Positions 3,930 to 35,017 of a DNA stretch of 64,000 nt are shown here, in pieces (the first letter of the stretch is position 1; every line of letters begins with the position of its first letter). The position numbers were made by a program, and so were the translations under genes. Below the pieces are notes generated by a model. It searched no databases and was not told the DNA's origin. It saw nothing but the letters and a program-made list of their open reading frames with translations. The stretch comes from Escherichia coli (GTDB lineage Bacteria > Pseudomonadota > Gammaproteobacteria > Enterobacterales > Enterobacteriaceae), in the NCBI RefSeq assembly GCF_003790525.1, contig NZ_CP033635.1; one strand, given 5' to 3'.

Positions 3930-4850
3930 CTATTGTGAAGGGAGATCGTGTTGTCGGGGTAAGGCGGTTATCGCGCCTTTAGCCGTGGTCGCCAGAGCAC
4001 CACAAATCTGAGCTTGTGCAATGATTCGTTCAAGCTGTCTGGTATTTGTTGGTATTCCAGAATCAGCCAGACCTGCAAGTAATCCAGCGACAAAAGCATC
4101 TCCTGCCCCGGTCGTATCGACGACAGAAACAGGTTTGGCGGGATAGTGGATAAACTGCCCCTGAAAATACACAAGTACGCCATTTTTTCCTTGTGTAATA
4201 AGCAATAAAGTCAACGAATAACGTTGTACTAATGAATATGCGCCTTGCTGAACCTGGCTTTCGCCACTGATGAATAGCAACTCTTCTTCGGACAATTTAG
4301 CGATATTCGCCAGCGAAAGTGCGCGATCAAGGTATTTCCTTAATAGCGCTTCACTCTGCCAGAGATCGCTGCGGATATTGGGATCAAAACTGATGTTTCC
4401 GCCAGCCTGACGTATTTTCTCCATAGCCAGAAATGCGGTACTTCGGGAAGGTTCTGCACTGAGCGCAATGGAACAAAGATGGAGCCATTCACCCGGCCCA
4501 AATGCAGGAAGGTCACCAGGTTGTAAAAAAAGATCGGCACTTGGGCGTACCATAAAGGTAAAGTTTCTTTCTCCTTGCTCATCAAGTCCTACAGCCACAA
4601 TTGAGGTGCGTTGTTGAGGATCAAGAGACATATAATGTGTATCAACATTTTCTGTACTCAGTGTCTGATACATAAAGCGACCGAAAGGATCATCGCCAAC
4701 TTTGCCAATAAAGGCACTTTTCCCCCCCAGCCTTGCGATACCGACTGCAACATTAGCAGGCGCCCCGCCAGGACACTGTAGTAGTCTCCCCTGGCTTTCG
4801 GGTAATAAATCAACAACCGCATCACCGAGTACCCATACTCTTGCGCTCAT
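3930..4850 (-). CDS. scrK: fructokinase (PfkB/ribokinase family)
   Basis: 306 aa ORF with N-terminal GDAVVD and C-terminal DTTGAGDAF motifs. Confidence 0.85.
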   Translation of the reverse strand: MSARVWVLGDAVVDLLPESQGRLLQCPGGAPANVAVGIARLGGKSAFIGKVGDDPFGRFMYQTLSTENVDTHYMSLDPQQRTSIVAVGLDEQGERNFTFMVRPSADLFLQPGDLPAFGPGEWLHLCSIALSAEPSRSTAFLAMEKIRQAGGNISFDPNIRSDLWQSEALLRKYLDRALSLANIAKLSEEELLFISGESQVQQGAYSLVQRYSLTLLLITQGKNGVLVYFQGQFIHYPAKPVSVVDTTGAGDAFVAGLLAGLADSGIPTNTRQLERIIAQAQICGALATTAKGAITALPRQHDLPSQ

Positions 4851-6519: not shown

Positions 6520-7797
6520 TTACTTGCTGCTAGCCATAGCAGGGGCGCTATCAGCAGTACGAATTTTTTGGAACAGCAAAAAGGTAAAGATGATCACCAT
6601 GGCAAGCGCCGCCATGCCCATTAGCCACATGTTGCGGTAGGCTTCTGCAGCGGGCAGGGTGTCTTGCCAGTGGCCGATAATCGGGTAAACGAAGACATCC
6701 GGCAGGAATCCAATCACCGAACAAATACCTACCGTGGTGCCCATAATGTAAGACGGTGTTCTCGCTTCGCCGGGGCAGGCCCAGTACAGTCCACGTGAGG
6801 CGTAGCAGGTGAATCCCAGTAGTAAAATCAGGCCAATCCCCATAGCGACCGATTGCGGGTTAGAGTTGGTAACAAGCAGGGCAGTCAGTGCCAGCAGGCC
6901 GATGATGGAAAGGATTTGAATTACGCGGGTAGGGGATTTCACTTTACTGTAGGTGGTGATAATGCCGCCAAGTGGACCACACAGCGCGCGGAAGATTTTG
7001 TTGATCACAATCCCCATGTAGCTCGCCGCCACCAGCGACATGCCGTACATTTCGGTGAGATAGTTGGTGGAGTAACTCAGAATGGCGTAGATGGTGAAGA
7101 CGCCAAAAATCACCATGCTGCAATACCAGGTGGTGCTGATGCGCAAAACAGCCAGGATGTCGCTAAGCTGGAATGATTGTTTTTCTTCGTTATTGGCACT
7201 GCGCAGGTTGTTGTTATCGCTAACAAAAAACCAGCACAGAATCCCCAACAAGATGTAAACCACACTATAGATGATAATGACCGTTTTCAGGCTGGCGCTG
7301 TCATCCGGTGCAAAGCGAGAAAAGACCCACATGGTAAACACCGCCAGCGACATTACACCGACGCCGCGCAGCCCTTCCATCCAGCCCATAATTTTCCCTT
7401 GCTCGCTATGATCGCCCAGCAACGATGCGGCTTTAATCGACACCGACCACAGCATTAAAATCGTCGTTATCGCAAAGGCAACCTGAATACAGAGCATTAC
7501 CCACAGCGGTGGATAAGTTGCCATTAACAGACCCAGTAATCCGGTAATGATCATCGCGGAAGTAATCATTTTGCGATGTGAGAATTTATCGGCAATAACG
7601 CCACTGGGCGCATAAAGAATAATAGCTGCAATACCAAAGGTACTCATTATTAAACCTATCTCGGTATTGCTGAATCCCATAAATTTCGCCATGGGAATTT
7701 GATAAATATAACGTAAATAAGCCAGGTCGAAACTAACGCCGCCGCTAAAACTAATTATCGCGAGGGTTATCCAACGGCGATATGAGTTGTGTTGCAT
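6520..7797 (-). CDS. yqcE: MFS transporter
   Basis: 425 aa ORF, 12-TM-like hydrophobic profile; 27 bp upstream of ygcE on the same strand. Confidence 0.8.
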   Translation of the reverse strand: MQHNSYRRWITLAIISFSGGVSFDLAYLRYIYQIPMAKFMGFSNTEIGLIMSTFGIAAIILYAPSGVIADKFSHRKMITSAMIITGLLGLLMATYPPLWVMLCIQVAFAITTILMLWSVSIKAASLLGDHSEQGKIMGWMEGLRGVGVMSLAVFTMWVFSRFAPDDSASLKTVIIIYSVVYILLGILCWFFVSDNNNLRSANNEEKQSFQLSDILAVLRISTTWYCSMVIFGVFTIYAILSYSTNYLTEMYGMSLVAASYMGIVINKIFRALCGPLGGIITTYSKVKSPTRVIQILSIIGLLALTALLVTNSNPQSVAMGIGLILLLGFTCYASRGLYWACPGEARTPSYIMGTTVGICSVIGFLPDVFVYPIIGHWQDTLPAAEAYRNMWLMGMAALAMVIIFTFLLFQKIRTADSAPAMASSK

Positions 7798-8969: not shown

Positions 8970-10424
8970 ATGTCTTTATCTCGCGCAGCGATTGTCGACC
9001 AGCTAAAGGAAATTGTTGGTGCAGATCGCGTAATTACCGATGAAACAGTATTAAAGAAAAACAGTATTGACCGTTTTCGCAAATTTCCGGATATTCATGG
9101 CATTTATACTTTGCCTATTCCGGCAGCGGTCGTAAAACTCGGTTCCACAGAGCAAGTGTCCCGTGTGCTGAATTTTATGAATGCGCACAAAATTAACGGT
9201 GTGCCGCGTACCGGTGCTTCCGCCACTGAAGGCGGGCTGGAAACCGTTGTGGAAAACTCGGTGGTGCTCGACGGCTCTGCCATGAATCAAATCATTAATG
9301 TTGATATTGAGAATATGCAGGCCACGGCGCAATGTGGCGTTCCGCTGGAGGTGCTGGAAAACGCGTTGCGTGAAAAAGGTTACACCACGGGGCATTCACC
9401 GCAATCAAAACCGCTGGCGCAGATGGGCGGCCTGGTAGCAACCCGCAGTATCGGGCAGTTCTCCACACTCTACGGCGCAATCGAAGATATGGTCGTTGGT
9501 CTGGAAGCAGTATTGGCTGATGGCACCGTCACACGTATTAAAAACGTACCACGCCGCGCGGCAGGCCCGGACATTCGTCACATTATCATCGGCAACGAAG
9601 GTGCATTGTGCTATATCACTGAAGTAACAGTGAAAATCTTTAAGTTCACCCCGGAAAACAACCTCTTCTACGGCTATATCCTGGAAGACATGAAAACCGG
9701 CTTCAACATCCTGCGTGAAATCATGGTGGAAGGGTATCGTCCGTCGATCGCTCGTTTGTATGACGTTGAAGATGGCACCCAACACTTCACCCATTTTGCC
9801 GACGGTAAATGTGTGCTGATCTTTATGGCTGAAGGTAACCCTCGCATTGCGAAGGCGACGGGTGAAGGGATTGCTGAAATCGTGGCGCGCTACCCGCAGT
9901 GCCAGCGCGTGGACAGCAAGCTGATCGAAACCTGGTTTAACAACCTGAACTGGGGACCGGATAAAGTGGCTGCCGAACGTGTGCAGATCCTCAAAACCGG
10001 CAACATGGGCTTTACCACCGAAGTGTCCGGCTGCTGGAGCTGCATCCACGAAATCTACGAAAGCGTTATTAACCGTATTCGCACCGAGTTCCCGCACGCC
10101 GACGACATCACCATGCTGGGCGGTCACTCCTCTCATAGCTATCAGAACGGCACCAACATGTACTTCGTCTACGACTACAACGTCGTTGACTGTAAGCCGG
10201 AAGAGGAAATCGACAAGTACCACAATCCGCTCAACAAAATCATTTGCGAAGAAACCATTCGCCTCGGCGGTTCGATGGTGCACCACCACGGTATTGGTAA
10301 ACATCGCGTTCACTGGAGCAAACTGGAACACGGCAGCGCGTGGACGTTGCTGGAAGGGCTGAAAAAACAGTTCGATCCTAACGGCATTATGAATACGGGT
10401 ACTATCTATCCGATTGAAAAATAA
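8970..10424 (+). CDS. ygcU: FAD-linked oxidase (GlcD / alkyl-DHAP synthase-like)
   Basis: 484 aa ORF with FAD-binding PCMH-type domain signature. Confidence 0.85.
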   Translation: MSLSRAAIVDQLKEIVGADRVITDETVLKKNSIDRFRKFPDIHGIYTLPIPAAVVKLGSTEQVSRVLNFMNAHKINGVPRTGASATEGGLETVVENSVVLDGSAMNQIINVDIENMQATAQCGVPLEVLENALREKGYTTGHSPQSKPLAQMGGLVATRSIGQFSTLYGAIEDMVVGLEAVLADGTVTRIKNVPRRAAGPDIRHIIIGNEGALCYITEVTVKIFKFTPENNLFYGYILEDMKTGFNILREIMVEGYRPSIARLYDVEDGTQHFTHFADGKCVLIFMAEGNPRIAKATGEGIAEIVARYPQCQRVDSKLIETWFNNLNWGPDKVAAERVQILKTGNMGFTTEVSGCWSCIHEIYESVINRIRTEFPHADDITMLGGHSSHSYQNGTNMYFVYDYNVVDCKPEEEIDKYHNPLNKIICEETIRLGGSMVHHHGIGKHRVHWSKLEHGSAWTLLEGLKKQFDPNGIMNTGTIYPIEK

Positions 10425-21246: not shown

Positions 21247-22585
21247 CATAAGCGCTAACTTAAGGGTTGTGGTATTACGCCTGATATGATTTAACGTGCC
21301 GATGAATTACTCTCACGATAACTGGTCAGCAATTCTGGCCCATATTGGTAAGCCCGAAGAACTGGATACTTCGGCACGTAATGCCGGGGCTCTAACCCGC
21401 CGCCGCGAAATTCGTGATGCTGCAACTCTGCTACGTCTGGGGCTGGCTTACGGCCCCGGGGGGATGTCATTACGTGAAGTCACTGCATGGGCTCAGCTCC
21501 ATGACGTTGCAACATTATCTGACGTGGCTCTCCTGAAGCGGCTGCGGAATGCCGCCGACTGGTTTGGCATACTTGCCGCACAAACACTTGCTGTACGCGC
21601 CGCAGTTACGGGTTGTACAAGCGGAAAGAGATTGCGTCTTGTCGATGGAACAGCAATCAGTGCGCCCGGGGGCGGCAGCGCTGAATGGCGACTACATATG
21701 GGATATGATCCTCATACCTGTCAGTTCACTGATTTTGAGCTAACCGACAGCAGAGACGCTGAACGGCTGGACCGATTTGCGCAAACGGCAGACGAGATAC
21801 GCATTGCTGACCGGGGATTCGGTTCGCGTCCCGAATGTATCCGCTCACTTGCTTTTGGAGAAGCTGATTATATCGTCCGGGTTCACTGGCGAGGATTGCG
21901 CTGGTTAACTGCAGAAGGAATGCGCTTTGACATGATGGGTTTTCTGCGCGGGCTGGATTGCGGTAAGAACGGTGAAACCACTGTAATGATAGGCAATTCA
22001 GGTAATAAAAAAGCCGGAGCTCCCTTTCCGGCACGTCTCATTGCCGTATCACTTCCTCCCGAAAAAGCATTAATCAGTAAAACCCGACTGCTCAGCGAGA
22101 ATCGTCGAAAAGGACGAGTAGTTCAGGCGGAAACGCTGGAAGCAGCGGGCCATGTGCTATTGCTAACATCATTACCGGAAGATGAATATTCAGCAGAGCA
22201 AGTGGCTGATTGTTACCGTCTGCGATGGCAAATTGAACTGGCTTTTAAGCGGCTCAAAAGTTTGCTGCACCTGGATGCTTTGCGTGCAAAGGAACCTGAA
22301 CTCGCGAAAGCGTGGATATTTGCTAATCTACTCGCCGCATTTTTAATTGACGACATAATCCAGCCATCGCTGGATTTCCCCCCCAGAAGTGCCGGATCCG
22401 AAAAGAAGAACTAACTCGTTGTGGAGAATAACAAAAATGGTCATCTGGAGCTTACAGGTGGCCATTCGTGGGACAGTATCCCTGACAGCCTACAAAACGC
22501 AATTGAAGAACGCGAGGCATCGTCTTAACGAGGCACCGAGGCGTCGCATTCTTCAGATGGTTCAACCCTTAAGTTAGCGCTTATG
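21247..22585 (+). mobile_element. IS186 insertion sequence (about 1339 bp)
   Basis: 23-bp terminal inverted repeats CATAAGCGCTAACTTAAGGGTTG (21247-21269) and its reverse complement (22563-22585); encodes IS186-type transposase; flanked by a duplicated GGGTAAAACC-type target. Confidence 0.9.
21302..22414 (+). CDS. insL: IS186 transposase (IS4 family)
   Basis: 370 aa from ATG 21302 (MNYSHDNWSAILAHIGKPEEL...); the ORF track starts two codons earlier at a GTG. Confidence 0.9.
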   Translation: MNYSHDNWSAILAHIGKPEELDTSARNAGALTRRREIRDAATLLRLGLAYGPGGMSLREVTAWAQLHDVATLSDVALLKRLRNAADWFGILAAQTLAVRAAVTGCTSGKRLRLVDGTAISAPGGGSAEWRLHMGYDPHTCQFTDFELTDSRDAERLDRFAQTADEIRIADRGFGSRPECIRSLAFGEADYIVRVHWRGLRWLTAEGMRFDMMGFLRGLDCGKNGETTVMIGNSGNKKAGAPFPARLIAVSLPPEKALISKTRLLSENRRKGRVVQAETLEAAGHVLLLTSLPEDEYSAEQVADCYRLRWQIELAFKRLKSLLHLDALRAKEPELAKAWIFANLLAAFLIDDIIQPSLDFPPRSAGSEKKN

Positions 22586-22768: not shown

Positions 22769-25468
22769 ATGCGTAAATATCCTTTAAGTTTACTGAAGGA
22801 TAAAAATATTGTGACTTTTTTTGATTTCTGGGGAAAAACCCGACGCGGCGAGAAAGACGGGGGCGACGACTATCACCTTCTTTGCTGGCATTCGCTGGAT
22901 GTAGCCGCGATGGGCTATTTAATGGTTAAAAGCAATTGCTTCGGACTGGCTGACTATTTTCGTCAATTAGGTTTCGCTGACACGGAGCAGGCAGCACAAT
23001 TTTTCGCCTGGCTGCTGTGCTGGCACGATATTGGAAAATTTGCCCGCTCTTTTCAGCAACTTTACCTGCACCCACAACTCAAGGTCCCGGAAGGCGCAAG
23101 AAAGAATTACGAAAAGATCTCTCATTCAACGCTGGGCTACTGGTTGTGGAACCATTATTTAAGTGAATGTCAGGAGTTGCTTCCTTCATCTTCACTCTCT
23201 CCGCGCAAACTTAAACGGGTGATGGAGATGTGGATGCCCATGACTACCGGGCATCATGGTCGACCCCCTGAGCGTATGGATGAACTGGATAATTTTCTGC
23301 CTGAAGACAAAGGTGCCGCACGAGATTTTCTCCTTGCAATCAAGGTACTGTTTCCGCTCATAGAGATCCCCACATTCTGGGATGATGACGAGGGCGTTGA
23401 ACTTATAAAACAACTTTCCTGGTATATCTCTGCAACCGTCGTACTTGCAGACTGGACGGGATCGTCAACGCGATATTTTCCACGCGTCGCACAGACAATG
23501 GATATTGAAGATTACTGGCAGAAAACTTTAGTTCAGGCTCAAAACGCCTTAACCGTCTTTCCTCCAAAAGCAGAAAGCGCGCCTTTCACCGGAATTAATA
23601 CGCTGTTTCCTTTTATTGAGAATCCGACACCGCTACAGCAAAAGGTGCTGGATCTGGATATCAGCCAGCCGGGACCACAGTTATTTATTCTGGAGGATGT
23701 AACCGGCGCAGGTAAAACAGAAGCGGCGCTTATCCTGGCGCACAGGTTGATGGCTGCGGGGAAAGCGCAGGGTTTGTTTTTTGGCCTGCCAACAATGGCA
23801 ACGGCCAATGCCATGTACGATCGACTGGTCAAAACCTGGCTTGCTTTCTATTCGCCAGAGTCCCGCCCCAGCCTGGTGCTGGCACACAGTGCCCGAACAT
23901 TAATGGACCGCTTTAATGAATCACTCTGGTCCGGTGATTTAGTCGGGTCAGAAGAACCGGATGAACAAACGTTCAGTCAGGGATGTGCGGCCTGGTTTGC
24001 CGACAGTAACAAGAAGGCGCTACTGGCTGAAATTGGCGTCGGCACGCTGGATCAGGCGATGATGGCTGTGATGCCGTTCAAACATAATAATCTGCGGCTT
24101 CTGGGACTGAGTAACAAAATCCTGCTGGCTGATGAGATCCATGCCTGTGACGCTTACATGTCATGCATTCTTGAAGGGCTGATCGAGCGGCAGGCGCGTG
24201 GCGGAAACAGCGTCATTTTGCTTTCTGCCACGTTATCTCAACAGCAGCGCGACAAACTCGTTGCTGCCTTTGCGCGTGGTATAGAGGGCCAGCAAGAAGC
24301 TCCGTTCCTGGAAAAGGATGATTACCCCTGGCTGACGCACGTTACGAAATCCGATGTGCATTCACACCGGGTAGCGACGCGCAAAGACGTTGAGCGCAGC
24401 GTGAGTGTGGGTTGGCTTCATAGCGAACAAGAGTGTATTGCGCGTATCGCATCGGCGGTAAGTCAGGGGAAATGTATCGCCTGGATCCGAAATTCTGTCG
24501 ATGACGCCATCCAGGTTCATCGTCAGTTACTTGCCCGCGGCGTCATTCCTGCTTCCAGCCTTTCACTTTTTCATAGCCGCTTTGCTTTTAGCGATCGCCA
24601 GCGAATTGAAACGGAGACGCTGGCACGCTTTGGTAAAGAAGACTGTTCACAGCGTGCCGGAAAAGTCCTCATTTGTACTCAAGTCCTGGAGCAGAGCGTT
24701 GACTGCGACCTGGACGAAATGATTTCCGACCTTGCCCCTGTTGATTTACTGATCCAGCGAGCAGGGCGATTACAGCGACATATCCGCGATATGAATGGCC
24801 AGTTAAAGCGTGACGGTAAAGACGAGCGTCACCCTCCTGAATTGCTGATTCTGGCCCCCGTCTGGGACGACTCTCCGGGTGACGAATGGTTTGGCAGTGC
24901 CATGCGTAACAGTGCATTTGTCTATCCCGATCATGGGCGAATCTGGCTGACGCAGCGTGTGCTGCGTGAGCAAGGTGCTATTCAGATGCCACACTCAGCC
25001 CGGCTTCTGATTGAATCAGTCTACGGTGAGGACGTAGTAATGCCGGAAGGGTTTGCCCGCAGCGAGCAGGAGCAAGTGGGCAAATATTACTGCGATCGCG
25101 CAATGGCTAAAAAGTTTGTACTGAACTTCAGGCCCGGCTATGCCGCCAATATCAACGATTACCTCCCGGAAAAACTGTCGACACGTCTGGCTGAAGAGTC
25201 TGTTTCCCTGTGGCTGGCTACCTGTATTGACGGTGTGGTGAAGCCTTATGCCACAGGTGCACACGCATGGGAAATGAGCGTTGTCAGAGTGCGCCGAAGC
25301 TGGTGGAAAAAACATCGGGATGAGTTTTCTTTACTGGAAGGGGATGCGTTCAGGCAGTGGTGCGTTGAACAGCGGCATGATCCGGAGATGGCAAACGTGA
25401 TTTTAGTCACCGATGACGAAAGTTGTGGGTATTCGGCTACGGAGGGATTGATTGGCAAGGTTGGTTGA
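22769..25468 (+). CDS. cas3: Cas3 helicase-nuclease (type I-E)
   Basis: 899 aa; N-terminal HD region and superfamily-2 helicase motifs (GAGKTEAA, DEIH); first gene of the cas cluster. Confidence 0.9.
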   Translation: MRKYPLSLLKDKNIVTFFDFWGKTRRGEKDGGDDYHLLCWHSLDVAAMGYLMVKSNCFGLADYFRQLGFADTEQAAQFFAWLLCWHDIGKFARSFQQLYLHPQLKVPEGARKNYEKISHSTLGYWLWNHYLSECQELLPSSSLSPRKLKRVMEMWMPMTTGHHGRPPERMDELDNFLPEDKGAARDFLLAIKVLFPLIEIPTFWDDDEGVELIKQLSWYISATVVLADWTGSSTRYFPRVAQTMDIEDYWQKTLVQAQNALTVFPPKAESAPFTGINTLFPFIENPTPLQQKVLDLDISQPGPQLFILEDVTGAGKTEAALILAHRLMAAGKAQGLFFGLPTMATANAMYDRLVKTWLAFYSPESRPSLVLAHSARTLMDRFNESLWSGDLVGSEEPDEQTFSQGCAAWFADSNKKALLAEIGVGTLDQAMMAVMPFKHNNLRLLGLSNKILLADEIHACDAYMSCILEGLIERQARGGNSVILLSATLSQQQRDKLVAAFARGIEGQQEAPFLEKDDYPWLTHVTKSDVHSHRVATRKDVERSVSVGWLHSEQECIARIASAVSQGKCIAWIRNSVDDAIQVHRQLLARGVIPASSLSLFHSRFAFSDRQRIETETLARFGKEDCSQRAGKVLICTQVLEQSVDCDLDEMISDLAPVDLLIQRAGRLQRHIRDMNGQLKRDGKDERHPPELLILAPVWDDSPGDEWFGSAMRNSAFVYPDHGRIWLTQRVLREQGAIQMPHSARLLIESVYGEDVVMPEGFARSEQEQVGKYYCDRAMAKKFVLNFRPGYAANINDYLPEKLSTRLAEESVSLWLATCIDGVVKPYATGAHAWEMSVVRVRRSWWKKHRDEFSLLEGDAFRQWCVEQRHDPEMANVILVTDDESCGYSATEGLIGKVG

Positions 25469-25565: not shown

Positions 25566-27128
25566 ATGAACTCGTTTTCACTTCTGACAACCCCGTGGTT
25601 GCCTGTTCGTTTCAAAGACGGAACGACAGGCAAGCTGGCACCAGTCGATCTGGCTGATGAAAATGTTGTCGATATCGCCGCACCGCGAGCAGATTTACAA
25701 GGTGCGGCCTGGCAGTTTTTGCTGGGACTACTACAAACCAGCTTCGCGCCAAAAGATCATCGTCGTTGGGATGATATCTGGGAAGACGGACTGGAAGCTG
25801 AAAAGCTACGAGAAGCATTGCTGTCTTTAGAACATGCTTTCCAGTTTGGGCCTGATTCATCTTCATTTATGCAGGATTTTGAGGCGCTCACGGGAGATAA
25901 AGTTCCGGTCGCTTCGCTACTGCCTGAGATTCCCGGCTCTCAAACGACGAAGTTTAATAAAGACCATTTTATCAAGCGGGGTGTAACGGAATATCTGTGC
26001 CCCCATTGCTTAGCATTGGCCTTGTTCTCTTTACAGTTGAATGCACCCGCGGGCGGCAAAGGCTATCGCACCGGTTTACGAGGCGGTGGGCCGATGACGA
26101 CTCTCATTGAATTACAGGAATATCAGGGCAATCAACAAACACCCTTGTGGCGCAAACTGTGGCTCAACGTGATGCCGCAGGATGAAGCCGACTTACCGCT
26201 ACCCAAAAAATTTGACGATCTGATTTTCCCCTGGCTAGGCCCGACGCGTACCAGCGAACTGGTCGGTGCGGTGGTAACCCATGATCAGGTCAATAAACTC
26301 CAGGCGTACTGGGGAATGCCGCGGCGTATACGTATTGATTTTAATACCACGACAGTCGGCAACTGCGATATTTGCGACGAGCAGAACGACGCGCTCCTGA
26401 GCCTGATGACGACCAAAAATTATGGTGCCAATTATGCCATGTGGCAGCATCCCTTAACGCCTTACCGTGTACCACTTAAAGAGGGTGGCGAGTTTTACTC
26501 CGTTAAACCACAACCGGGCGGTTTAATCTGGCGCGACTGGTTAGGCCTTATCGAAACGGGTAAATCAGAAAACAATACGGAACTTCCCGCGTTGGTGGTG
26601 AAACTCTTTAATGCCAGCAGTCTGAAACAGGCAAAAGTGGGCCTATGGGGATTTGGTTATGATTTTGACAACATGAAAGCGCGCTGTTGGTACGAACACC
26701 ATTTCCCGCTACTGCTCAATAAAAAAGAAGGCCAGATACCGAAGCTGCGGCTGGCTGCGCAAACGGCTTCACGGATTCTGAGTCTGTTACGGAGTGCATT
26801 GAAAGAAGCATGGTTCTCCGATCCAAAAGGTGCAAGGGGTGATTTCAGTTTTGTGGATATCGACTTCTGGAACAAAACTCAGCATCGCTTCCTGAGGTTA
26901 GTGCGCCAAATTGAAGAAGGTCAGGATGCGGATGAATTACTCGGCAAATGGCAAAAGGAAATGTGGTTATTCGCGCGTCAGGATTTTGACGAGCGTGTAT
27001 TCACTAATCCTTATGAGCCCGTTGATTTGAAACGCGTCATGACCGCGCGCAAGAAATATTTTACAACATCGGCGGAGAAGCAAAGTGCTAAAGCCGCCAG
27101 GGAGAAAAAGCAGGAGGCTGCTGAATGA
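25566..27128 (+). CDS. casA: Cascade large subunit Cse1 (CasA)
   Basis: Start taken at ATG 25566 (MNSFSLLTTPWLPVR) with GAGAGG upstream; the ORF track begins at a TTG at 25497; position right after cas3. Confidence 0.8.
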   Translation: MNSFSLLTTPWLPVRFKDGTTGKLAPVDLADENVVDIAAPRADLQGAAWQFLLGLLQTSFAPKDHRRWDDIWEDGLEAEKLREALLSLEHAFQFGPDSSSFMQDFEALTGDKVPVASLLPEIPGSQTTKFNKDHFIKRGVTEYLCPHCLALALFSLQLNAPAGGKGYRTGLRGGGPMTTLIELQEYQGNQQTPLWRKLWLNVMPQDEADLPLPKKFDDLIFPWLGPTRTSELVGAVVTHDQVNKLQAYWGMPRRIRIDFNTTTVGNCDICDEQNDALLSLMTTKNYGANYAMWQHPLTPYRVPLKEGGEFYSVKPQPGGLIWRDWLGLIETGKSENNTELPALVVKLFNASSLKQAKVGLWGFGYDFDNMKARCWYEHHFPLLLNKKEGQIPKLRLAAQTASRILSLLRSALKEAWFSDPKGARGDFSFVDIDFWNKTQHRFLRLVRQIEEGQDADELLGKWQKEMWLFARQDFDERVFTNPYEPVDLKRVMTARKKYFTTSAEKQSAKAAREKKQEAAE

Positions 27129-27661
27129 GTATTGTAAAAGAGGAGCACAAAGCCACGCTGCGTAAATGGCACGAAGAGTTGCAGGAAAAACGCGGCAATC
27201 GTGCCAGTCTGCGGCGTAGCACAACGGTTAATGATGTTTGTCTGTCAGAAGGTTTTCGTTCTCTGCTGATGCAGACCCACACGTTGTGGAAAATTGAATC
27301 ACAGGAGTGGCGTTTTACCGCACTGGCGCTGGTTGCCGCCGTTGCCGCCAATGTAAAAGCCATTGATGAACGGCAGCCTTTTGCCGCGCAGTTGGCGGCG
27401 GTAATGTCTGAGGGGCGTTTTACTCGCCTGTCGGCAATCAAAACGCCGGATGATTTACTGCGCCAGTTACGTCGCGCGGTCAAATTATTAAACGGTTCCG
27501 TCAATCTTATCTCTTTGGCAGACGATATTTTCCGCTGGTGCCAGGAGAGTGACGACCTGCTCAACCATCACCGCCGTCAGCAGCGGCCAACAGAATTTAT
27601 CCGTATCCGCTGGGCGCTGGAATATTACCAGGCTGGCGACGCCGATAACGAACAAAATTAA
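27125..27661 (+). CDS. casB: Cascade small subunit Cse2 (CasB)
   Basis: 178 aa; ATG overlaps the cse1 stop (ATGA); position in the operon. Confidence 0.8.
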   Translation: MSIVKEEHKATLRKWHEELQEKRGNRASLRRSTTVNDVCLSEGFRSLLMQTHTLWKIESQEWRFTALALVAAVAANVKAIDERQPFAAQLAAVMSEGRFTRLSAIKTPDDLLRQLRRAVKLLNGSVNLISLADDIFRWCQESDDLLNHHRRQQRPTEFIRIRWALEYYQAGDADNEQN

Positions 27662-27675
27662 TAAAGGACTATCTC

Positions 27676-28731
27676 ATGACGACATTTATTCAGCTTCATT
27701 TGTTAACCGCTTACCCTGCAGCCAACCTTAACCGTGATGACACCGGTGCGCCGAAAACCGTGGTGCTGGGTGGAGCAACGCGTCTGCGCGTTTCCTCGCA
27801 AAGTCTGAAACGTGCGTGGCGCACTTCTGCACTTTTTGAACAGGCGCTGGCGGGCCATATTGGTATTCGTAGTGGGCGTATCGCGCGCGAGGCAGCAACT
27901 ATCATGATAGAGAAAGGAATCGAAGAAAAAAAAGCCATCGAATGGGCGGCAGATATTGCCGATTATCTTGGTAAAGCCAAAAAAGACAAAAAACCAAAAG
28001 ATCCGCTCACTAACGCTGAAACTGAACAGCTCGTCCATATCAGCCCGGCAGAATTTGACGCCGTAAAAGCGCTGGCCCATCAACTGGCAGAAGAAAAGCG
28101 CGCGCCAAAAGAGGACGATCTCGCTTTGTTACGTAAAGATCGTATGGCGGTAGATATCGCCATGTTTGGTCGTATGCTGGCGAATAAACCCGAGTTTAAT
28201 GTTGAAGCCGCCTGTCAGGTCGCGCACGCGTTTGGTGTCAGTGAAACGATTGTCGAAGATGATTTTTTCACCGCCGTTGATGATTTGCGCCAGGCCTCTG
28301 AAGATGCTGGTGCAGGGCATCTTGGTGAAACTGGATTTGGTTCTGCGCTGTTCTACACCTATATCTGCATTGATAAAGATCTGCTGGTCGAAAACCTCGG
28401 CGGTGACGAAGCATTAGCTAATCAGACCCTGCGCGCCTTTACGGAAGCAGCGTTTAAAGTTTCCCCAACCGGTAAACAAAACAGCTTTGCCAGCCGTGCC
28501 TACGCCTCCTGGGCGCTGGCAGAAAAAGGCACCGAACAACCGCGTTCTCTGGCGGCGGCTTTCTATGAACCCATTAATGGCACACGTCAGTTAGATGTGG
28601 CGGTGCAGCGTATTACAACGCTTCGCGAAAACATGAATACGGTTTACGAACAGAAGACCGAATGCGCAAGTTTTGACGTGATGAACAAACAGGGAAGCAT
28701 GAAGGACGTGCTGGACTTTATCTGCGCGTAA
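27676..28731 (+). CDS. casC: Cascade backbone subunit Cas7e (CasC)
   Basis: 351 aa; position and size in the I-E operon. Confidence 0.85.
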   Translation: MTTFIQLHLLTAYPAANLNRDDTGAPKTVVLGGATRLRVSSQSLKRAWRTSALFEQALAGHIGIRSGRIAREAATIMIEKGIEEKKAIEWAADIADYLGKAKKDKKPKDPLTNAETEQLVHISPAEFDAVKALAHQLAEEKRAPKEDDLALLRKDRMAVDIAMFGRMLANKPEFNVEAACQVAHAFGVSETIVEDDFFTAVDDLRQASEDAGAGHLGETGFGSALFYTYICIDKDLLVENLGGDEALANQTLRAFTEAAFKVSPTGKQNSFASRAYASWALAEKGTEQPRSLAAAFYEPINGTRQLDVAVQRITTLRENMNTVYEQKTECASFDVMNKQGSMKDVLDFICA

Positions 28732-28741
28732 GGGGCGGCTT

Positions 28742-29488
28742 ATGAGCCAATATCTGATTTTTCAGCTTCATGGGCCAATGGCATCCTGGGGCGTTGATGC
28801 ACCCGGTGAGGTGCGTCATAGCCATGAACTGCCTTCGCGTTCAGCATTGCTGGGGCTGCTGGCTGCCGGGGTAGGGATACGGCGTGATGACACCGAATGC
28901 TTAAACGCGTTTAATCGCCACTATTCACTGGTGGTTTGCGCCAGCCGTAACCCGCGCTGGGCACGGGATTATCACACGGTCCAGATGCCAAAAGAGGTGC
29001 GTAAAGCGCGTTATTTCAGCCGTCGCGAAGAGTTGAGCGACCCTGATCTTCTAAGCGCGATTATCTCCCGGCGCGACTACTACACCGATGCCTGGTGGAT
29101 GGTGGCCGTGGCAACAACAGCTGATGCGCCTTACAGCCTCGAACAGTTGCAGGAAGGTTTACGCCATCCGGTTTTTCCGCTTTATCTGGGGCGAAAAAGC
29201 CATCCGCTGGCATTACCCCTTGCGCCGTTACTGCTCGAAGGCAACGCGTCTGATGCCTTACGTAACGCATACCAACAGTATCAGGATCGTTTCCACGAAC
29301 TAAAAGTCTCACTCCCGAAACTTCAGGATGAATGCTGGTGGGAAGGGGAGCACGATGGCCTGGTCTCGAGCAAAATATTACGCCGCCGGGATGTTCCTTT
29401 AAATCGTCAGCAGTGGCTGTTTGGGGAACGCACCGTCAATCAGGGGCCGTGGCTCAGCAAGGAGGAACCATGTACCTCTCAAGAATAA
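28742..29488 (+). CDS. casD: Cascade subunit Cas5e (CasD)
   Basis: 248 aa; position in the operon. Confidence 0.85.
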   Translation: MSQYLIFQLHGPMASWGVDAPGEVRHSHELPSRSALLGLLAAGVGIRRDDTECLNAFNRHYSLVVCASRNPRWARDYHTVQMPKEVRKARYFSRREELSDPDLLSAIISRRDYYTDAWWMVAVATTADAPYSLEQLQEGLRHPVFPLYLGRKSHPLALPLAPLLLEGNASDALRNAYQQYQDRFHELKVSLPKLQDECWWEGEHDGLVSSKILRRRDVPLNRQQWLFGERTVNQGPWLSKEEPCTSQE

Positions 29489-30116
29489 CCTTACATACCG
29501 GCCAGCTTTCGCCTGCGCAGTTGCTGCATCTGGTGGATCGCGGGGAATATGTGATGCATCAGTGGCTGTGGGATCTTTTTCCTGGCGGCAAAGAAAGGCA
29601 ATTTCTTTATCGTCGGGAAGAACTCCAGGGCGCGTTTCGCTTTTTTGTCCTGTCGCAGGAACGCCCGGCGGAAAGTGAAACGTTCACCATCGAATGCCGG
29701 TCATTTGCGCCTGAACTGCATACCGGACAATCCCTTTGTTTCAACCTGCGGGCGAATCCAACAGTCTGTAAAGCGGGTAAGCGCCACGATCTGCTGATGG
29801 AGGCGAAACGGCAGGTGAGGGGGCAGGCGGAAGGAAGAAATGTCTGGTTGCATCAACAACAGGCGGCGCTGGACTGGCTGGCAGCGCAGGGGGAGAGAAG
29901 CGGTTTTACACTGCTGGATACCTCGGTCGATGCCTACCGACAACAGCAACTGCGGCGGGAAAACTCCCGGCAACTGATCCAGTTCAGTAGCGTGGATTAT
30001 ACAGGGATGCTTACAGTCACCGATCCAGGGTTATTTCTGCAACGTCTCTGCCTGGGGTATGGCAAAAGCCGGGCGTTCGGCTGTGGTCTGATGTTAATCA
30101 AACCCGGAGCAGAGGC

Positions 30117-30120
<4 letters not shown>
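29470..30120 (+). CDS. casE: crRNA endoribonuclease Cas6e (CasE)
   Basis: Start taken at MYLSRITLHTG with GGAGGA at 29461-29466; overlaps the casD 3' end by 19 bp. Confidence 0.85.
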
Positions 30121-31330
<1,210 letters not shown>

Positions 31331-31426
31331 GTTACCCGTTCTTTAAAAATAAGGAAAAGTTTGAATTTAGTTGGTAGATTGTTGTTGTGGAATAAAATTG
31401 TTTAAAAACAGATACGTATGCTTAGT
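31331..31426 (+). promoter_or_regulatory. CRISPR leader (AT-rich) between cas2 and the first repeat
   Basis: 96-bp AT-rich segment immediately 5' of repeat 1, on the same side as cas1-cas2. Confidence 0.6.
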
Positions 31427-32797
31427 GTGTTCCCTGCGCCAGCGGGGATAAACCGGTGACCATAAGGGCATTTCATACTGCCTTGCTGTGTTCCCTGCGC
31501 CAGCGGGGATAAACCGGTGAACGTGACAACGCCCGCGACAGAAACGTCGTGTTCCCTGCGCCAGCGGGGATAAACCGGGAAGAAGCGGTAAAGCGGGTTC
31601 CAGTTCAGCGTGTTCCCTGCGCCAGCGGGGATAAACCGAAATTAATTTCGAAACGGGCGTTGATGGTGAAGTGTTCCCTGCGCCAGCGGGGATAAACCGG
31701 CTGGCGCACCTTACGCAAAAATAGACGTAAAGTGTTCCCTGCGCCAGCGGGGATAAACCGCCAGGGAGCGAAGCTGTGGCCATGCTGAAAGGGTGTTCCC
31801 TGCGCCAGCGGGGATAAACCGGGGTTCTATTTCCTCGGGATTTGCCGACACGCGTGTTCCCTGCGCCAGCGGGGATAAACCGGTCAACGCTGGTCAGGCG
31901 TGGTACTTCCTCCGGTGTTCCCTGCGCCAGCGGGGATAAACCGGCTGCCGCGCTTTCGGTGTGGGAGCAGTATGAGTGTTCCCTGCGCCAGCGGGGATAA
32001 ACCGAAACTCCGTGGTGTAGTGCGTTTGTTGGTGCGGTGTTCCCTGCGCCAGCGGGGATAAACCGTTGGTATTAACGGGAATGTAGTCACTCCAGGAGTG
32101 TTCCCTGCGCCAGCGGGGATAAACCGGCGATCGTATTTTCCGCTACGTCGCTCAAATGGTGTTCCCTGCGCCAGCGGGGATAAACCGTCGTTGATGGTGT
32201 GATGAGTGTACAAAAAAAAGTGTTCCCTGCGCCAGCGGGGATAAACCGACGACTGAATCCGGCGAGGCTATCAACTGGCCGTGTTCCCTGCGCCAGCGGG
32301 GATAAACCGCCGCACACGTCGAGCTGGTGGGGATTAATGCTGTGTTCCCTGCGCCAGCGGGGATAAACCGCAGTAAACGTTCGCGCGTTCTCGCGCTCAC
32401 GAGTGTTCCCTGCGCCAGCGGGGATAAACCCTCTGTGTATTCGCTACCAGCCAGCACCGGTACGTGTTCCCTGCGCCAGCGGGGATAAACCGCAGGGTAA
32501 CTGGCTGCTCCTCAACCATTCCGCGTGTTCCCCGCGCCAGCGGGGATAAACCGGGGTTTTAGCGACCGGACCAGAGTACGCAACAGTGTTCCCCGCGCCA
32601 GCGGGGATAAACCGTTGCGCCTTAAGTTCCTTAACTTCCTCTGTATGTGTTCCCCGCGCCAGCGGGGATAAACCGGGAGTGATGAATTGGAAGTAACGGA
32701 TAACCGCGTGTTCCCTGCGCCAGCGGGGATAAACCGGACGCACTGGATGCGATGATGGATATCACTTAGAGTTCCCCCCGCCCCTGCGGTAGAACTC
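31427..32797 (+). CRISPR. type I-E CRISPR array: 23 repeats of 29 bp (last one degenerate), 22 spacers of 32 bp, period 61 bp
   Basis: Repeat GTGTTCCCTGCGCCAGCGGGGATAAACCG starting at 31427, 31488, 31549 ... 32708 (every 61 bp); degenerate terminal repeat GAGTTCCCCCCGCCCCTGCGGTAGAACTC at 32769-32797. Confidence 0.95.
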
Positions 32798-32819
32798 CCA
32801 GCTCCCATTTTCAAACCCA

Positions 32820-33857
32820 TCAAGACGCCTTCGCCAGCTCTTTCACCAGAGGTAGCATTATCCGCATAACGTCACGGCAGCGACGTTCTATTCTTCCAGG
32901 AAGTGCCTTATCAATATGTTGTTGATTATCCAGTCTTACGTCATGCCAGCTATTTCCCGCAGGGAATGCAGCTGTTTTTGCGCGTTGCTGATAACCATCC
33001 TTATTTCCAAGATTCCAGTTGGTCGCCTCCACCGAAAGTACCGCAATACCGGCTTTGTCGAAAACTTCGGCGTCATTACAACAGCCAGTACCCTTCGGAT
33101 AATTTTTATTCAAACCCGGATTGGTCGTTGCGGCAATTCCATGACTACGCGCAATTGCCAGCGCCCTGTCGCGCGTTAATTTCCTTACTGCTTCAGGGGT
33201 TTTTACACCGCTGTTGAAATACAATTTATCGCCAACAATTAAGTTATCGAGATTAATCACCAGCAGTGTATTTTTCTTTTCGGAGTCACTCATCCGCTTG
33301 AGTAAATTCTCAGCGCCTAATTTCCCTTCCTCTTCGCCGCTGGTCGCCACAAATCGAATACCATACTCGGTAGGCGTATTTTTCAGGCGTTCTGCCAATT
33401 CCAGCATGACACCTAAACCTGCGGCGTTATCATCCATTCCTTGTAACGTCAGCCCGCCGAGATTGGCATCGGCGTCAGCATCGCTCAGCGGGGCGTAAGT
33501 ATCCAGATGCGCCATAATGATGATCTGCTGCGGCGCTTTGCCTTCATGAGCGGCAATCACCGTACTTCCCGTCACGTTATGCCAGCTCTTGCGATTATCG
33601 CGGGCGGTATAAATATACCGACTATTAAATGTCCGAATATCACTGCGATAACCCATTTGCTGAAACTGTTGGCGAATATAATCGGCAGATAACATTTCTG
33701 CTGGAGTTCCGGTCATGCGTCCCGGAAAGAAAGTAGCAATATGTCGTGCCTGGGTATTAGCAAAATCGCCAGGTTTAGGTGACGAGGCGTGTACGGGGAG
33801 AATAAAGCATACGCCGAGCGCCAGGGCAGCGGTACGGTGGCGCAATGCGGAAAACAT
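32820..33857 (-). CDS. iap: alkaline phosphatase isozyme conversion aminopeptidase
   Basis: 345 aa with signal peptide; M28-peptidase-like; convergent with the CRISPR array. Confidence 0.85.
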   Translation of the reverse strand: MFSALRHRTAALALGVCFILPVHASSPKPGDFANTQARHIATFFPGRMTGTPAEMLSADYIRQQFQQMGYRSDIRTFNSRYIYTARDNRKSWHNVTGSTVIAAHEGKAPQQIIIMAHLDTYAPLSDADADANLGGLTLQGMDDNAAGLGVMLELAERLKNTPTEYGIRFVATSGEEEGKLGAENLLKRMSDSEKKNTLLVINLDNLIVGDKLYFNSGVKTPEAVRKLTRDRALAIARSHGIAATTNPGLNKNYPKGTGCCNDAEVFDKAGIAVLSVEATNWNLGNKDGYQQRAKTAAFPAGNSWHDVRLDNQQHIDKALPGRIERRCRDVMRIMLPLVKELAKAS

Positions 33858-34108
33858 AGTGAGTCCTTAAATACCATGCAAATTTTTTTACCGCCATAGT
33901 ATGAAACTGCCGCTGCGCTAAAACAATTTCAAATCTTCCTAAACGCCCGAAATCCGGTGCCTTAAGCACTTTTTGATATTAGCTTTGCCAAATCGTTATT
34001 CCGTTAAGGAACTACTCATTCTAATTGGTAATTTCATTCGTTCTCTTACGCTCCCTATAGTCGAAACATCTGATGGCAAGAAAATAGCGGTATTGCAAAG
34101 GAACGGTT

Positions 34109-35017
34109 ATGGATCAAATACGACTTACTCACCTGCGGCAACTGGAGGCGGAAAGCATCCACATTATTCGCGAGGTGGCGGCAGAATTCTCAAATCCGGT
34201 GATGCTCTACTCTATCGGTAAAGATTCCAGCGTCATGCTGCATCTGGCGCGCAAGGCGTTTTATCCAGGTACGCTGCCTTTCCCGTTGCTGCATGTCGAT
34301 ACCGGCTGGAAATTCCGCGAGATGTATGAGTTCCGCGATCGTACGGCGAAAGCCTACGGCTGCGAGCTGCTGGTGCATAAAAACCCGGAAGGCGTGGCGA
34401 TGGGGATTAATCCATTCGTACACGGCAGCGCGAAACATACCGATATTATGAAAACTGAAGGCCTGAAACAGGCGCTGAACAAATACGGTTTTGATGCCGC
34501 CTTCGGTGGTGCGCGCCGTGACGAAGAGAAATCCCGCGCTAAAGAGCGAATCTACTCTTTCCGTGACCGCTTCCATCGCTGGGATCCGAAAAATCAGCGC
34601 CCGGAGCTGTGGCACAACTACAACGGGCAAATTAACAAAGGCGAAAGCATCCGCGTCTTCCCGCTCTCTAACTGGACCGAGCAGGATATCTGGCAATACA
34701 TCTGGCTGGAAAATATCGACATTGTGCCGCTGTATCTCGCTGCGGAACGTCCGGTTCTGGAACGCGACGGTATGTTGATGATGATTGATGACAACCGTAT
34801 CGACCTGCAACCGGGCGAAGTGATTAAAAAACGGATGGTGCGTTTCCGTACGCTGGGCTGCTGGCCGCTGACCGGTGCGGTGGAGTCAAATGCACAAACA
34901 CTGCCGGAGATCATCGAAGAGATGCTGGTTTCCACCACCAGTGAACGTCAGGGCCGCGTGATTGACCGCGACCAGGCGGGGTCTATGGAGCTGAAAAAAC
35001 GTCAGGGGTATTTTTAA
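34109..35017 (+). CDS. cysD: sulfate adenylyltransferase subunit 2
   Basis: 302 aa; PAPS-reductase-like fold signature. Confidence 0.95.

Follow-up and report, generated by a model that had tools for sequence, protein, structure and literature searches.

The repeat variants of the CRISPR array at positions 31427-32797 are real and record the history of that array; they represent no new biology, and the array itself is already known. Taken as a whole, the best explanation, in which we have high confidence, is that this is the ordinary, already annotated type I-E CRISPR2.1 array (the CRISPR-I locus) of SMS-3-5-like Escherichia coli. Within the window, that is, the entire stretch of 64,000 nucleotides that was analysed, the segment from 31000 to 33400 is shared at 100% identity by E. 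coli SMS-3-5 (NC_010498.1) and 11 further complete genomes, and the RefSeq annotation of an identical genome has a CRISPR feature here, flanked by cas2e and iap. A first-pass annotation made from the letters of the window had named sequencing error as the explanation that could overturn the variants. With 12 independent complete genomes identical over this segment, sequencing or assembly error has a negligible probability as their source, and it is excluded by the eight other versions of the array, which keep the variant at each homologous repeat.

Setting and anatomy of the CRISPR2.1 array

A complete cas3-cse1-cse2-cas7-cas5-cas6e-cas1-cas2 operon lies upstream of the array on the same (plus) strand, and seven of its eight products are identified by type I-E-specific models. 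The first gene (22769-25468) is an open reading frame for an 899-residue Cas3 helicase/nuclease that scores above the cut-offs of the NCBIfam models cas3_core and cas3_HD and below that of the full-length Cas3 equivalog (423 versus 569 bits); it is annotated as Cas3 in NC_010498.1. The type I-E NCBIfam equivalog cut-offs are passed, in agreement with RefSeq, by casA/cse1 (25566-27128), casB/cse2 (27125-27661), cas7e (27676-28731), cas5e (28742-29488), cas6e (29470-30120) and cas1e (30117-31040), and the 97-residue product of cas2e (31037-31330) reaches 133 bits against a TIGR01873 cut-off of 33, again as in RefSeq. No cas gene is flagged as a pseudogene in the RefSeq annotation of the identical sequence. 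Between cas2e and the first repeat lies an AT-rich leader of 96 nt (31331-31426, plus strand), with a GC content of 28% versus 52% for the window; it is of the L1 type, a name that, like that of the cas-E1 gene variant, comes from Almendros 2014 (PMC3903273), whose strain set included SMS-3-5. The leader is identical in all members of the clade of 24 genomes described below, and its last 60 nt show one mismatch against strain 2014C-3075. A sigma-70-like site within it (31371-31398, plus strand) is weak and no better than chance. By sequence, the array would be transcribed from this leader adjoining cas2e, and Cas6e would cut the transcript into 61-nt crRNAs.

The conserved flank on the trailer side is iap (32820-33857, minus strand), an open reading frame that RefSeq also annotates, and an Rfam scan of 30000-34500 returned no family at the gathering threshold. 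The identical RefSeq record holds a Hok/Gef family toxin gene at about 22420-22575, between cysH and cas3; a hok-sok element has been noted as part of CRISPR-I locus arrangements (Almendros 2014, PMC3903273). The whole arrangement resembles that of the E. coli CRISPR2.1 array (Diez-Villasenor 2010; Almendros 2014, PMC3903273), which lies between cas2e and iap with hok/gef upstream of cas3, and the likeness extends to a repeat that fits the consensus GWGTTCCCCGCGCCAGCGGGGATAAACCG, to spacers of 32 nt, to a shared trailer spacer and to a degenerate last repeat. No structural difference from the known array was found, and the sole particular feature is a clade-private T at repeat position 9, referred to here as 9T.

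The array consists of 23 repeats of 29 nt and 22 different spacers of 32 nt on the plus strand, with an exact period of 61 nt such that the repeats start at 31427 + 61n for n = 0 to 22; the RefSeq CRISPR feature in the identical genome spans 31427-32736. A search with the consensus repeat at up to three mismatches gave 22 matches in the window versus 0 expected from 100 shuffles, and 22 repeats at a period of 61 nt fall within two mismatches of the C-type repeat, where chance would be expected to give none. The first-pass annotation had described an array of 22 spacers with several repeat variants, and the repeat search together with a direct reading of the sequence recovered every variant that it listed. 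The majority, T-type repeat is GTGTTCCCTGCGCCAGCGGGGATAAACCG, with 18 copies, and T occupies position 9 in R1 to R18 (31427-32492) and again in R22 (32708-32736), giving 19 T-type repeats when R17, which ends in C, is counted among them (GTGTTCCCTGCGCCAGCGGGGATAAACCC, one copy, 32403-32431). The C-type repeat GTGTTCCCCGCGCCAGCGGGGATAAACCG is present in three copies, R19 to R21, which start at 32525, 32586 and 32647, occupy 32525-32675 together with the intervening spacers S19 and S20, and read CCCCG at positions 6-10 versus CCCTG in the majority. The first-pass annotation did not mention that R22, which lies distal to these three repeats, is again of the T type, which means that the oldest end of the array is not formed by the C block.

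The terminal repeat, GAGTTCCCCCCGCCCCTGCGGTAGAACTC (32769-32797, plus strand), shares 17 of 29 bases with the majority repeat. It had been listed among the variants as degenerate, which is true, yet it has degenerate homologues at this locus in all strains compared, so that the degeneracy is species-wide rather than specific to this array and represents an old feature of the CRISPR2.1 locus. Set against the other strains examined, the clade's version shows A3G and two extra C, and the trailer end thus holds clade-private changes (A3G and the CC insertion) besides the T of R22.

Which end of the array is the growing end can be read from the distribution of its spacers. The oldest, S22 (32737-32768, plus strand), is the ancestral anchor spacer, which is common across the species, being found at the CRISPR2.1 locus in about 4,200-4,300 of 5,426 complete E. 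coli genomes. S1 to S21 as a set are confined to a clade of 24 of these genomes, the leader-end spacers are private to that clade, and a few single spacers recur in other arrays. The combination of a widespread S22 with a clade-only S1-S21 identifies the cas2 side as the acquisition end. The first-pass placement of the leader on that side is thereby borne out by spacer distribution as well as by the AT-rich leader and the RefSeq context.

All 24 clade genomes share the same skeleton, and none has a spacer that is absent from the window. One version of the array is shared by 12 genomes, and eight others were read from the 12 more. Strain 2D lacks S13; CUVET17-1418 lacks S3, S12 and S17; E22 lacks S7 and S17; HS4 lacks S16-17; CS5L lacks S11-13; 702/18 lacks S4-5; KFu014 lacks S4-12; and M172-1 lacks S1-7 and S17-21, with R17 joined directly to R22. 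SBF22 carries instead a conversion-like event at S17, S18 and R19. Judged by these spacer contents, the array is frozen since the clade ancestor, with no spacers added and with only internal deletions and one duplication or conversion as later changes. Frozen arrays are generally reported for E. coli, as is H-NS silencing.

Repeat positions 9 and 29

The distribution of 9T was surveyed across the 5,426 complete E. coli genomes with a 30-nt query able to seed on the T variant alone. Of these genomes, 29 have the exact 9T repeat: 24 are the members of the clade (10-20 copies each) and five have a single sporadic copy. Among 100,044 species-representative genomes the exact 9T repeat is limited to two unrelated species, with one copy in each. 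In the clade genomes that were checked, the 9T copies are the T repeats of the CRISPR2.1 array, 19 in SMS-3-5 and 20 in SBF22. Since the 19 matches in SMS-3-5 equal the number of its T-type repeats, the second type I-E array of that genome is without 9T. The nearest relative at cas2 and the leader, 2014C-3075 (99.5% identical), has consensus repeats only. The census and the repeats of 2014C-3075 together indicate that T is the derived state, private to one clade and confined to its CRISPR2.1 array, and that C is the species-wide consensus.

We propose that the ancestral repeat had C at position 9 and that the leader-proximal repeat may have changed to T at, or just after, the acquisition of S18. 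Each later acquisition would duplicate the leader-proximal repeat, and 17 later units would in this way have inherited the T. The observed distribution of 9T fits duplication of that repeat whenever a new unit is added. The first-pass annotation had held that old C repeats were retained as newer units copied the leader-proximal sequence; the direction of change that it implied, with C as the consensus and T as the derived state, stands, but its account leaves the T of R22 unexplained.

The trailer-end accumulation of repeat mutations that Milicevic reportedly described in 2019 is said to be used for orienting CRISPR arrays. The present array resembles that pattern in that its variants lie toward the leader-distal end and its leader-proximal repeats are uniform. 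It differs in that the uniform repeats on the leader side are here the mutant ones, whereas the block on the trailer side has the consensus, and in that R22 breaks the gradient.

A different origin is suggested for the C at position 29 of R17, the repeat directly before S17. Experiments on the E. coli type I-E system identified the final nucleotide of the repeat as the third PAM nucleotide, which enters with the new spacer, and showed that deviations at this nucleotide are not propagated to the next unit (Swarts 2012, PMC3338789). Within the array, C is found at position 29 in R17 only, and R16 is back to G. In SBF22 the C of R17 is duplicated together with S17, and the clade arrays without S17, namely those of CUVET17-1418, E22, HS4 and M172-1, do not have it. 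More broadly, 135 unique internal repeat-spacer units from 10 arrays contained six sporadic variants, four of them at position 29. We therefore read the C of R17 as probably PAM-derived and not as a repeat mutation: it would be the last PAM nucleotide that entered with S17, the PAM of the S17 protospacer would then not end in G, and a spacer-borne base would not be passed to R16. The first-pass annotation had lumped this C with the repeat variants, and its failure to propagate to R16 and its movement with S17 in SBF22 are better explained if it is spacer-borne. The behavior parallels that described by Swarts 2012 (PMC3338789), in which a single repeat end other than G is not inherited by the next-newer repeat and moves with the spacer; the match between PAM and repeat end was demonstrated there, whereas here the repeat side alone was read for S17.

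The protospacer of S17 was sought in several ways. A query of all 22 spacers concatenated, S17 included, gave none in phages or plasmids; S17 alone gave full-length matches in E. coli genomes only to the clade's own arrays; and neither an exact 24-mer in IMG/VR nor two exact sub-patterns in metagenome contigs gave a match. Another internal repeat with C at position 29 was seen at 5530-5558 of L030, in the unrelated CRISPR2.1 array of strain 2013C-4282, which is consistent with a spacer-borne position 29.

Repeat R22 and recombination within the array

R22 is the oldest full repeat of the array, and its T is inconsistent with a simple polar model. A T that arose after the acquisition of S19 predicts C in all older repeats, yet R22 has T, and a second event is thus required. 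Simple retention of ancestral repeats, as the first-pass annotation had it, accordingly fails at this one repeat, which is older than the C block and has C in 2014C-3075. The state of the repeat before S22 was read from directly fetched loci. Outside the clade it is the consensus in 2014C-3075 and OkiPb01688, 13T in APEC O2-211 and CT265, 2A in 700462 and 2A13T19A in HS, and it is never 9T in the non-clade strains compared. Identity bands for 61-nt queries, a coarse measure, gave a best match of 99% or higher for the 13T query in 111 genomes and for the consensus query in 44, and one or more further differences from these queries are present in most genomes.

How did the T reach R22? A precedent for the movement of T between repeats is found in SBF22, in which a stretch that starts at position 29 of R17, includes S17 and reaches at least position 9 of R18 has overwritten its counterpart in the next unit downstream; a second S17, preceded by its C, now stands in the place of S18, and R19 has T instead of C. 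With the exception of this R19, the C block of R19-R21 is the same in every clade member that keeps those spacers. The SBF22 event is either gene conversion or duplication followed by deletion, and in both cases it demonstrates that recombination moves T between repeats in the lineage of this clade. By analogy with this one precedent, the T of R22 would be secondary, introduced by gene conversion, in which a T-type repeat would have donated a short tract non-reciprocally. This is the explanation that we favor over parallel mutation, and we give it about an even chance of being correct.

An alternative hypothesis is that R22 gained its T by an independent, parallel C-to-T point mutation, which we consider possible but clearly less probable than conversion. 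C-to-T is a common transition, single sporadic 9T repeats are known from the five other E. coli genomes and the two other species of the census, and the degenerate trailer-end repeat of the CRISPR2.3 arrays examined is also 9T. However, five genomes among roughly 5,400, each with many repeats, make sporadic 9T rare, so that its coincidence with the one clade in which T fills the array is unlikely, and a conversion-like event was seen directly in one of the 24 clade genomes. A further hypothesis reverses the order of events, with T arising first, in R22 while that repeat was leader-proximal, and filling the whole array, and with the S19-S21 block and its C repeats imported later by recombination with another array. 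CRISPR arrays of E. coli are documented to recombine with one another (Almendros 2014, PMC3903273), S7 is common to the CRISPR2.3 arrays of unrelated strains, and the two flanks are discordant in their similarity to 2014C-3075, at 99.5% for cas2 and the leader (31037-31426) versus 97.3% for the trailer and iap (32798-33400). This discordance suggests, at the level of sequence similarity, a recombination breakpoint in or near the array, and recombination between different arrays could instead have shaped the repeat pattern. Nevertheless, S19-S21 occur in no non-clade genome among the 5,426, and an import would need both crossovers within the first 8 nt of a repeat if R22 is to keep T and R19 C, which makes this the least likely of the three explanations of R22 and an improbable one. 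Short gene conversion from a T-type repeat is thus the explanation that we carry forward.

Spacer targets and the hairpin of the T-type repeat

Searches for spacer homology, of the kind that the first-pass annotation had proposed as a check, confidently identified protospacers with a PAM for four of the 22 spacers. The PAMs of S4, S8, S9 and S15 are AAG or ATG; all end in G, matching the G at repeat position 29. S4 and S5 (31639-31731, plus strand) match tail gene I of prophages and phages at sites 41 nt apart on the same strand; in one P2-like tail gene these are positions 9365 and 9324 of L014, with four and five mismatches, respectively, and S4 has the PAM AAG. The joint S4 and S5 match is found in several hundred E. 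coli prophages, with 425 records in the corresponding identity band. One prophage of strain JX2 carries, on a single strand and each with the PAM ATG, the matches to both S8 and S9 (31883-31975, plus strand), at positions 1475 (one mismatch) and 4002 (no mismatches) of L019. S15 (32310-32341, plus strand) perfectly matches a protospacer with the PAM ATG in the 5' end of a phage gene for a holin/anti-holin; the protospacer lies directly after the ATG start codon at about 6545-6576 of the IMG/VR contig L027, and the open reading frame matches PHROG 126 (holin/anti-holin). As regards self-targeting, no spacer matches the rest of the window at six or fewer mismatches.

Several of these spacers also recur elsewhere. 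The orphan type I-F (CRISPR4) array of strain 536 has as its first spacer the S15 site, shifted by 2 nt and placed after the type I-F PAM CC. The location of the protospacer in a phage holin gene implies that this orphan-array spacer targets phage and not the I-F cas genes. A role for S15 itself as an anti-cas spacer was considered and rejected: 13 mismatches separate it from its closest match in the I-F cas operon of MS1170, no better than chance, and its target is the phage holin gene. Unannotated matches to the S15 site at the same coordinates recur in other genomes, and a variant of S15 with two mismatches is present in the CRISPR2.3 array of strain 55989; sites matching S15 were read at 2501-2532 of both L018 and L016. 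S12 (32127-32158) coincides with a type I-F spacer of MS1170 (1283-1314 in L017 and L020) on the opposite strand with a 1-nt shift, an arrangement consistent with both an I-E and an I-F PAM; IMG/VR gave no target for S12. S12 and S15 sample the same protospacers as type I-F spacers of other E. coli, at offsets of 1-2 nt that are consistent with both PAMs, which might reflect prespacer hot spots or substrates common to the two adaptation machineries. S7 (31822-31853) is identical to a spacer that unrelated strains, H2 among them (L015, 2502-2533), have in the other I-E array, CRISPR2.3, which lies between queE and ygcE; this sharing reflects either separate acquisitions from one protospacer or a transfer from array to array. 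A broader and tentative proposal, which we regard as doubtful, draws on the T of R1-R18 and R22 against the C of R19-R21, together with the SBF22 event: short-tract conversion within an array would be a regular process that homogenises repeats and overwrites spacers without acquisition. Separately, type I-E and I-F systems might share prespacer hot spots or substrates.

Does the T variant alter the function of the repeat? In RNAfold predictions the C and T repeats form the same hairpin, with a 7-bp stem and a 4-nt loop, at -15.2 and -13.0 kcal/mol, respectively. The G-U wobble that the first-pass annotation had predicted in the stem is present, with C9-G18 becoming U9-G18, and the predicted hairpin is unchanged. 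It agrees with the published repeat architecture of Cas6e substrates, which has a 21-nt 3' handle (reviewed in PMC5965381). No Cas6e hairpin fold is predicted for the terminal repeat. After T arose, 17 further spacers were acquired, and the pairs of adjacent spacers against the same phage and strand (S4 with S5, S8 with S9) resemble primed acquisition, which suggests that T-type units were processed and used. We infer that the U-G wobble would be functionally neutral.

The opposing hypothesis takes the T to be an adaptation that evolved in step with changes in Cas6e or Cas1-Cas2. It could draw on a 66-nt segment of cas6e (30020-30085) that is found exactly only in the same 24 genomes, and on a Cas6e that differs from that of 2014C-3075 at residues 194-195, adjoining the glycine-rich loop. 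However, C194 and L195 are also present in 2013C-4282, whose repeats keep the consensus C at position 9, and all other Cas6e residues equal those of 2014C-3075, which has consensus repeats only; it follows that no Cas6e residue is private to the clade, and co-evolution of Cas6e with the T repeat is rejected on this ground. Cas2e is identical in 2014C-3075, and T repeats are absent from the second array of the clade genomes. Co-evolution of any kind is on this evidence very improbable, and a neutral wobble is the reading that we retain.

Beyond strain typing the variants are of little importance. For typing, the 9T repeat is a clean marker of the SMS-3-5-like clade of E. coli, and the deletion variants of the array are usable for sub-typing within it. 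The array is also a neat example from nature of two rules that have been published for type I-E adaptation, that the leader-proximal repeat is copied and that the repeat takes its final base from the PAM. Finally, recombination within an array can blur gradients of repeat variation, and caution is warranted when arrays are oriented or dated by their repeat mutations.
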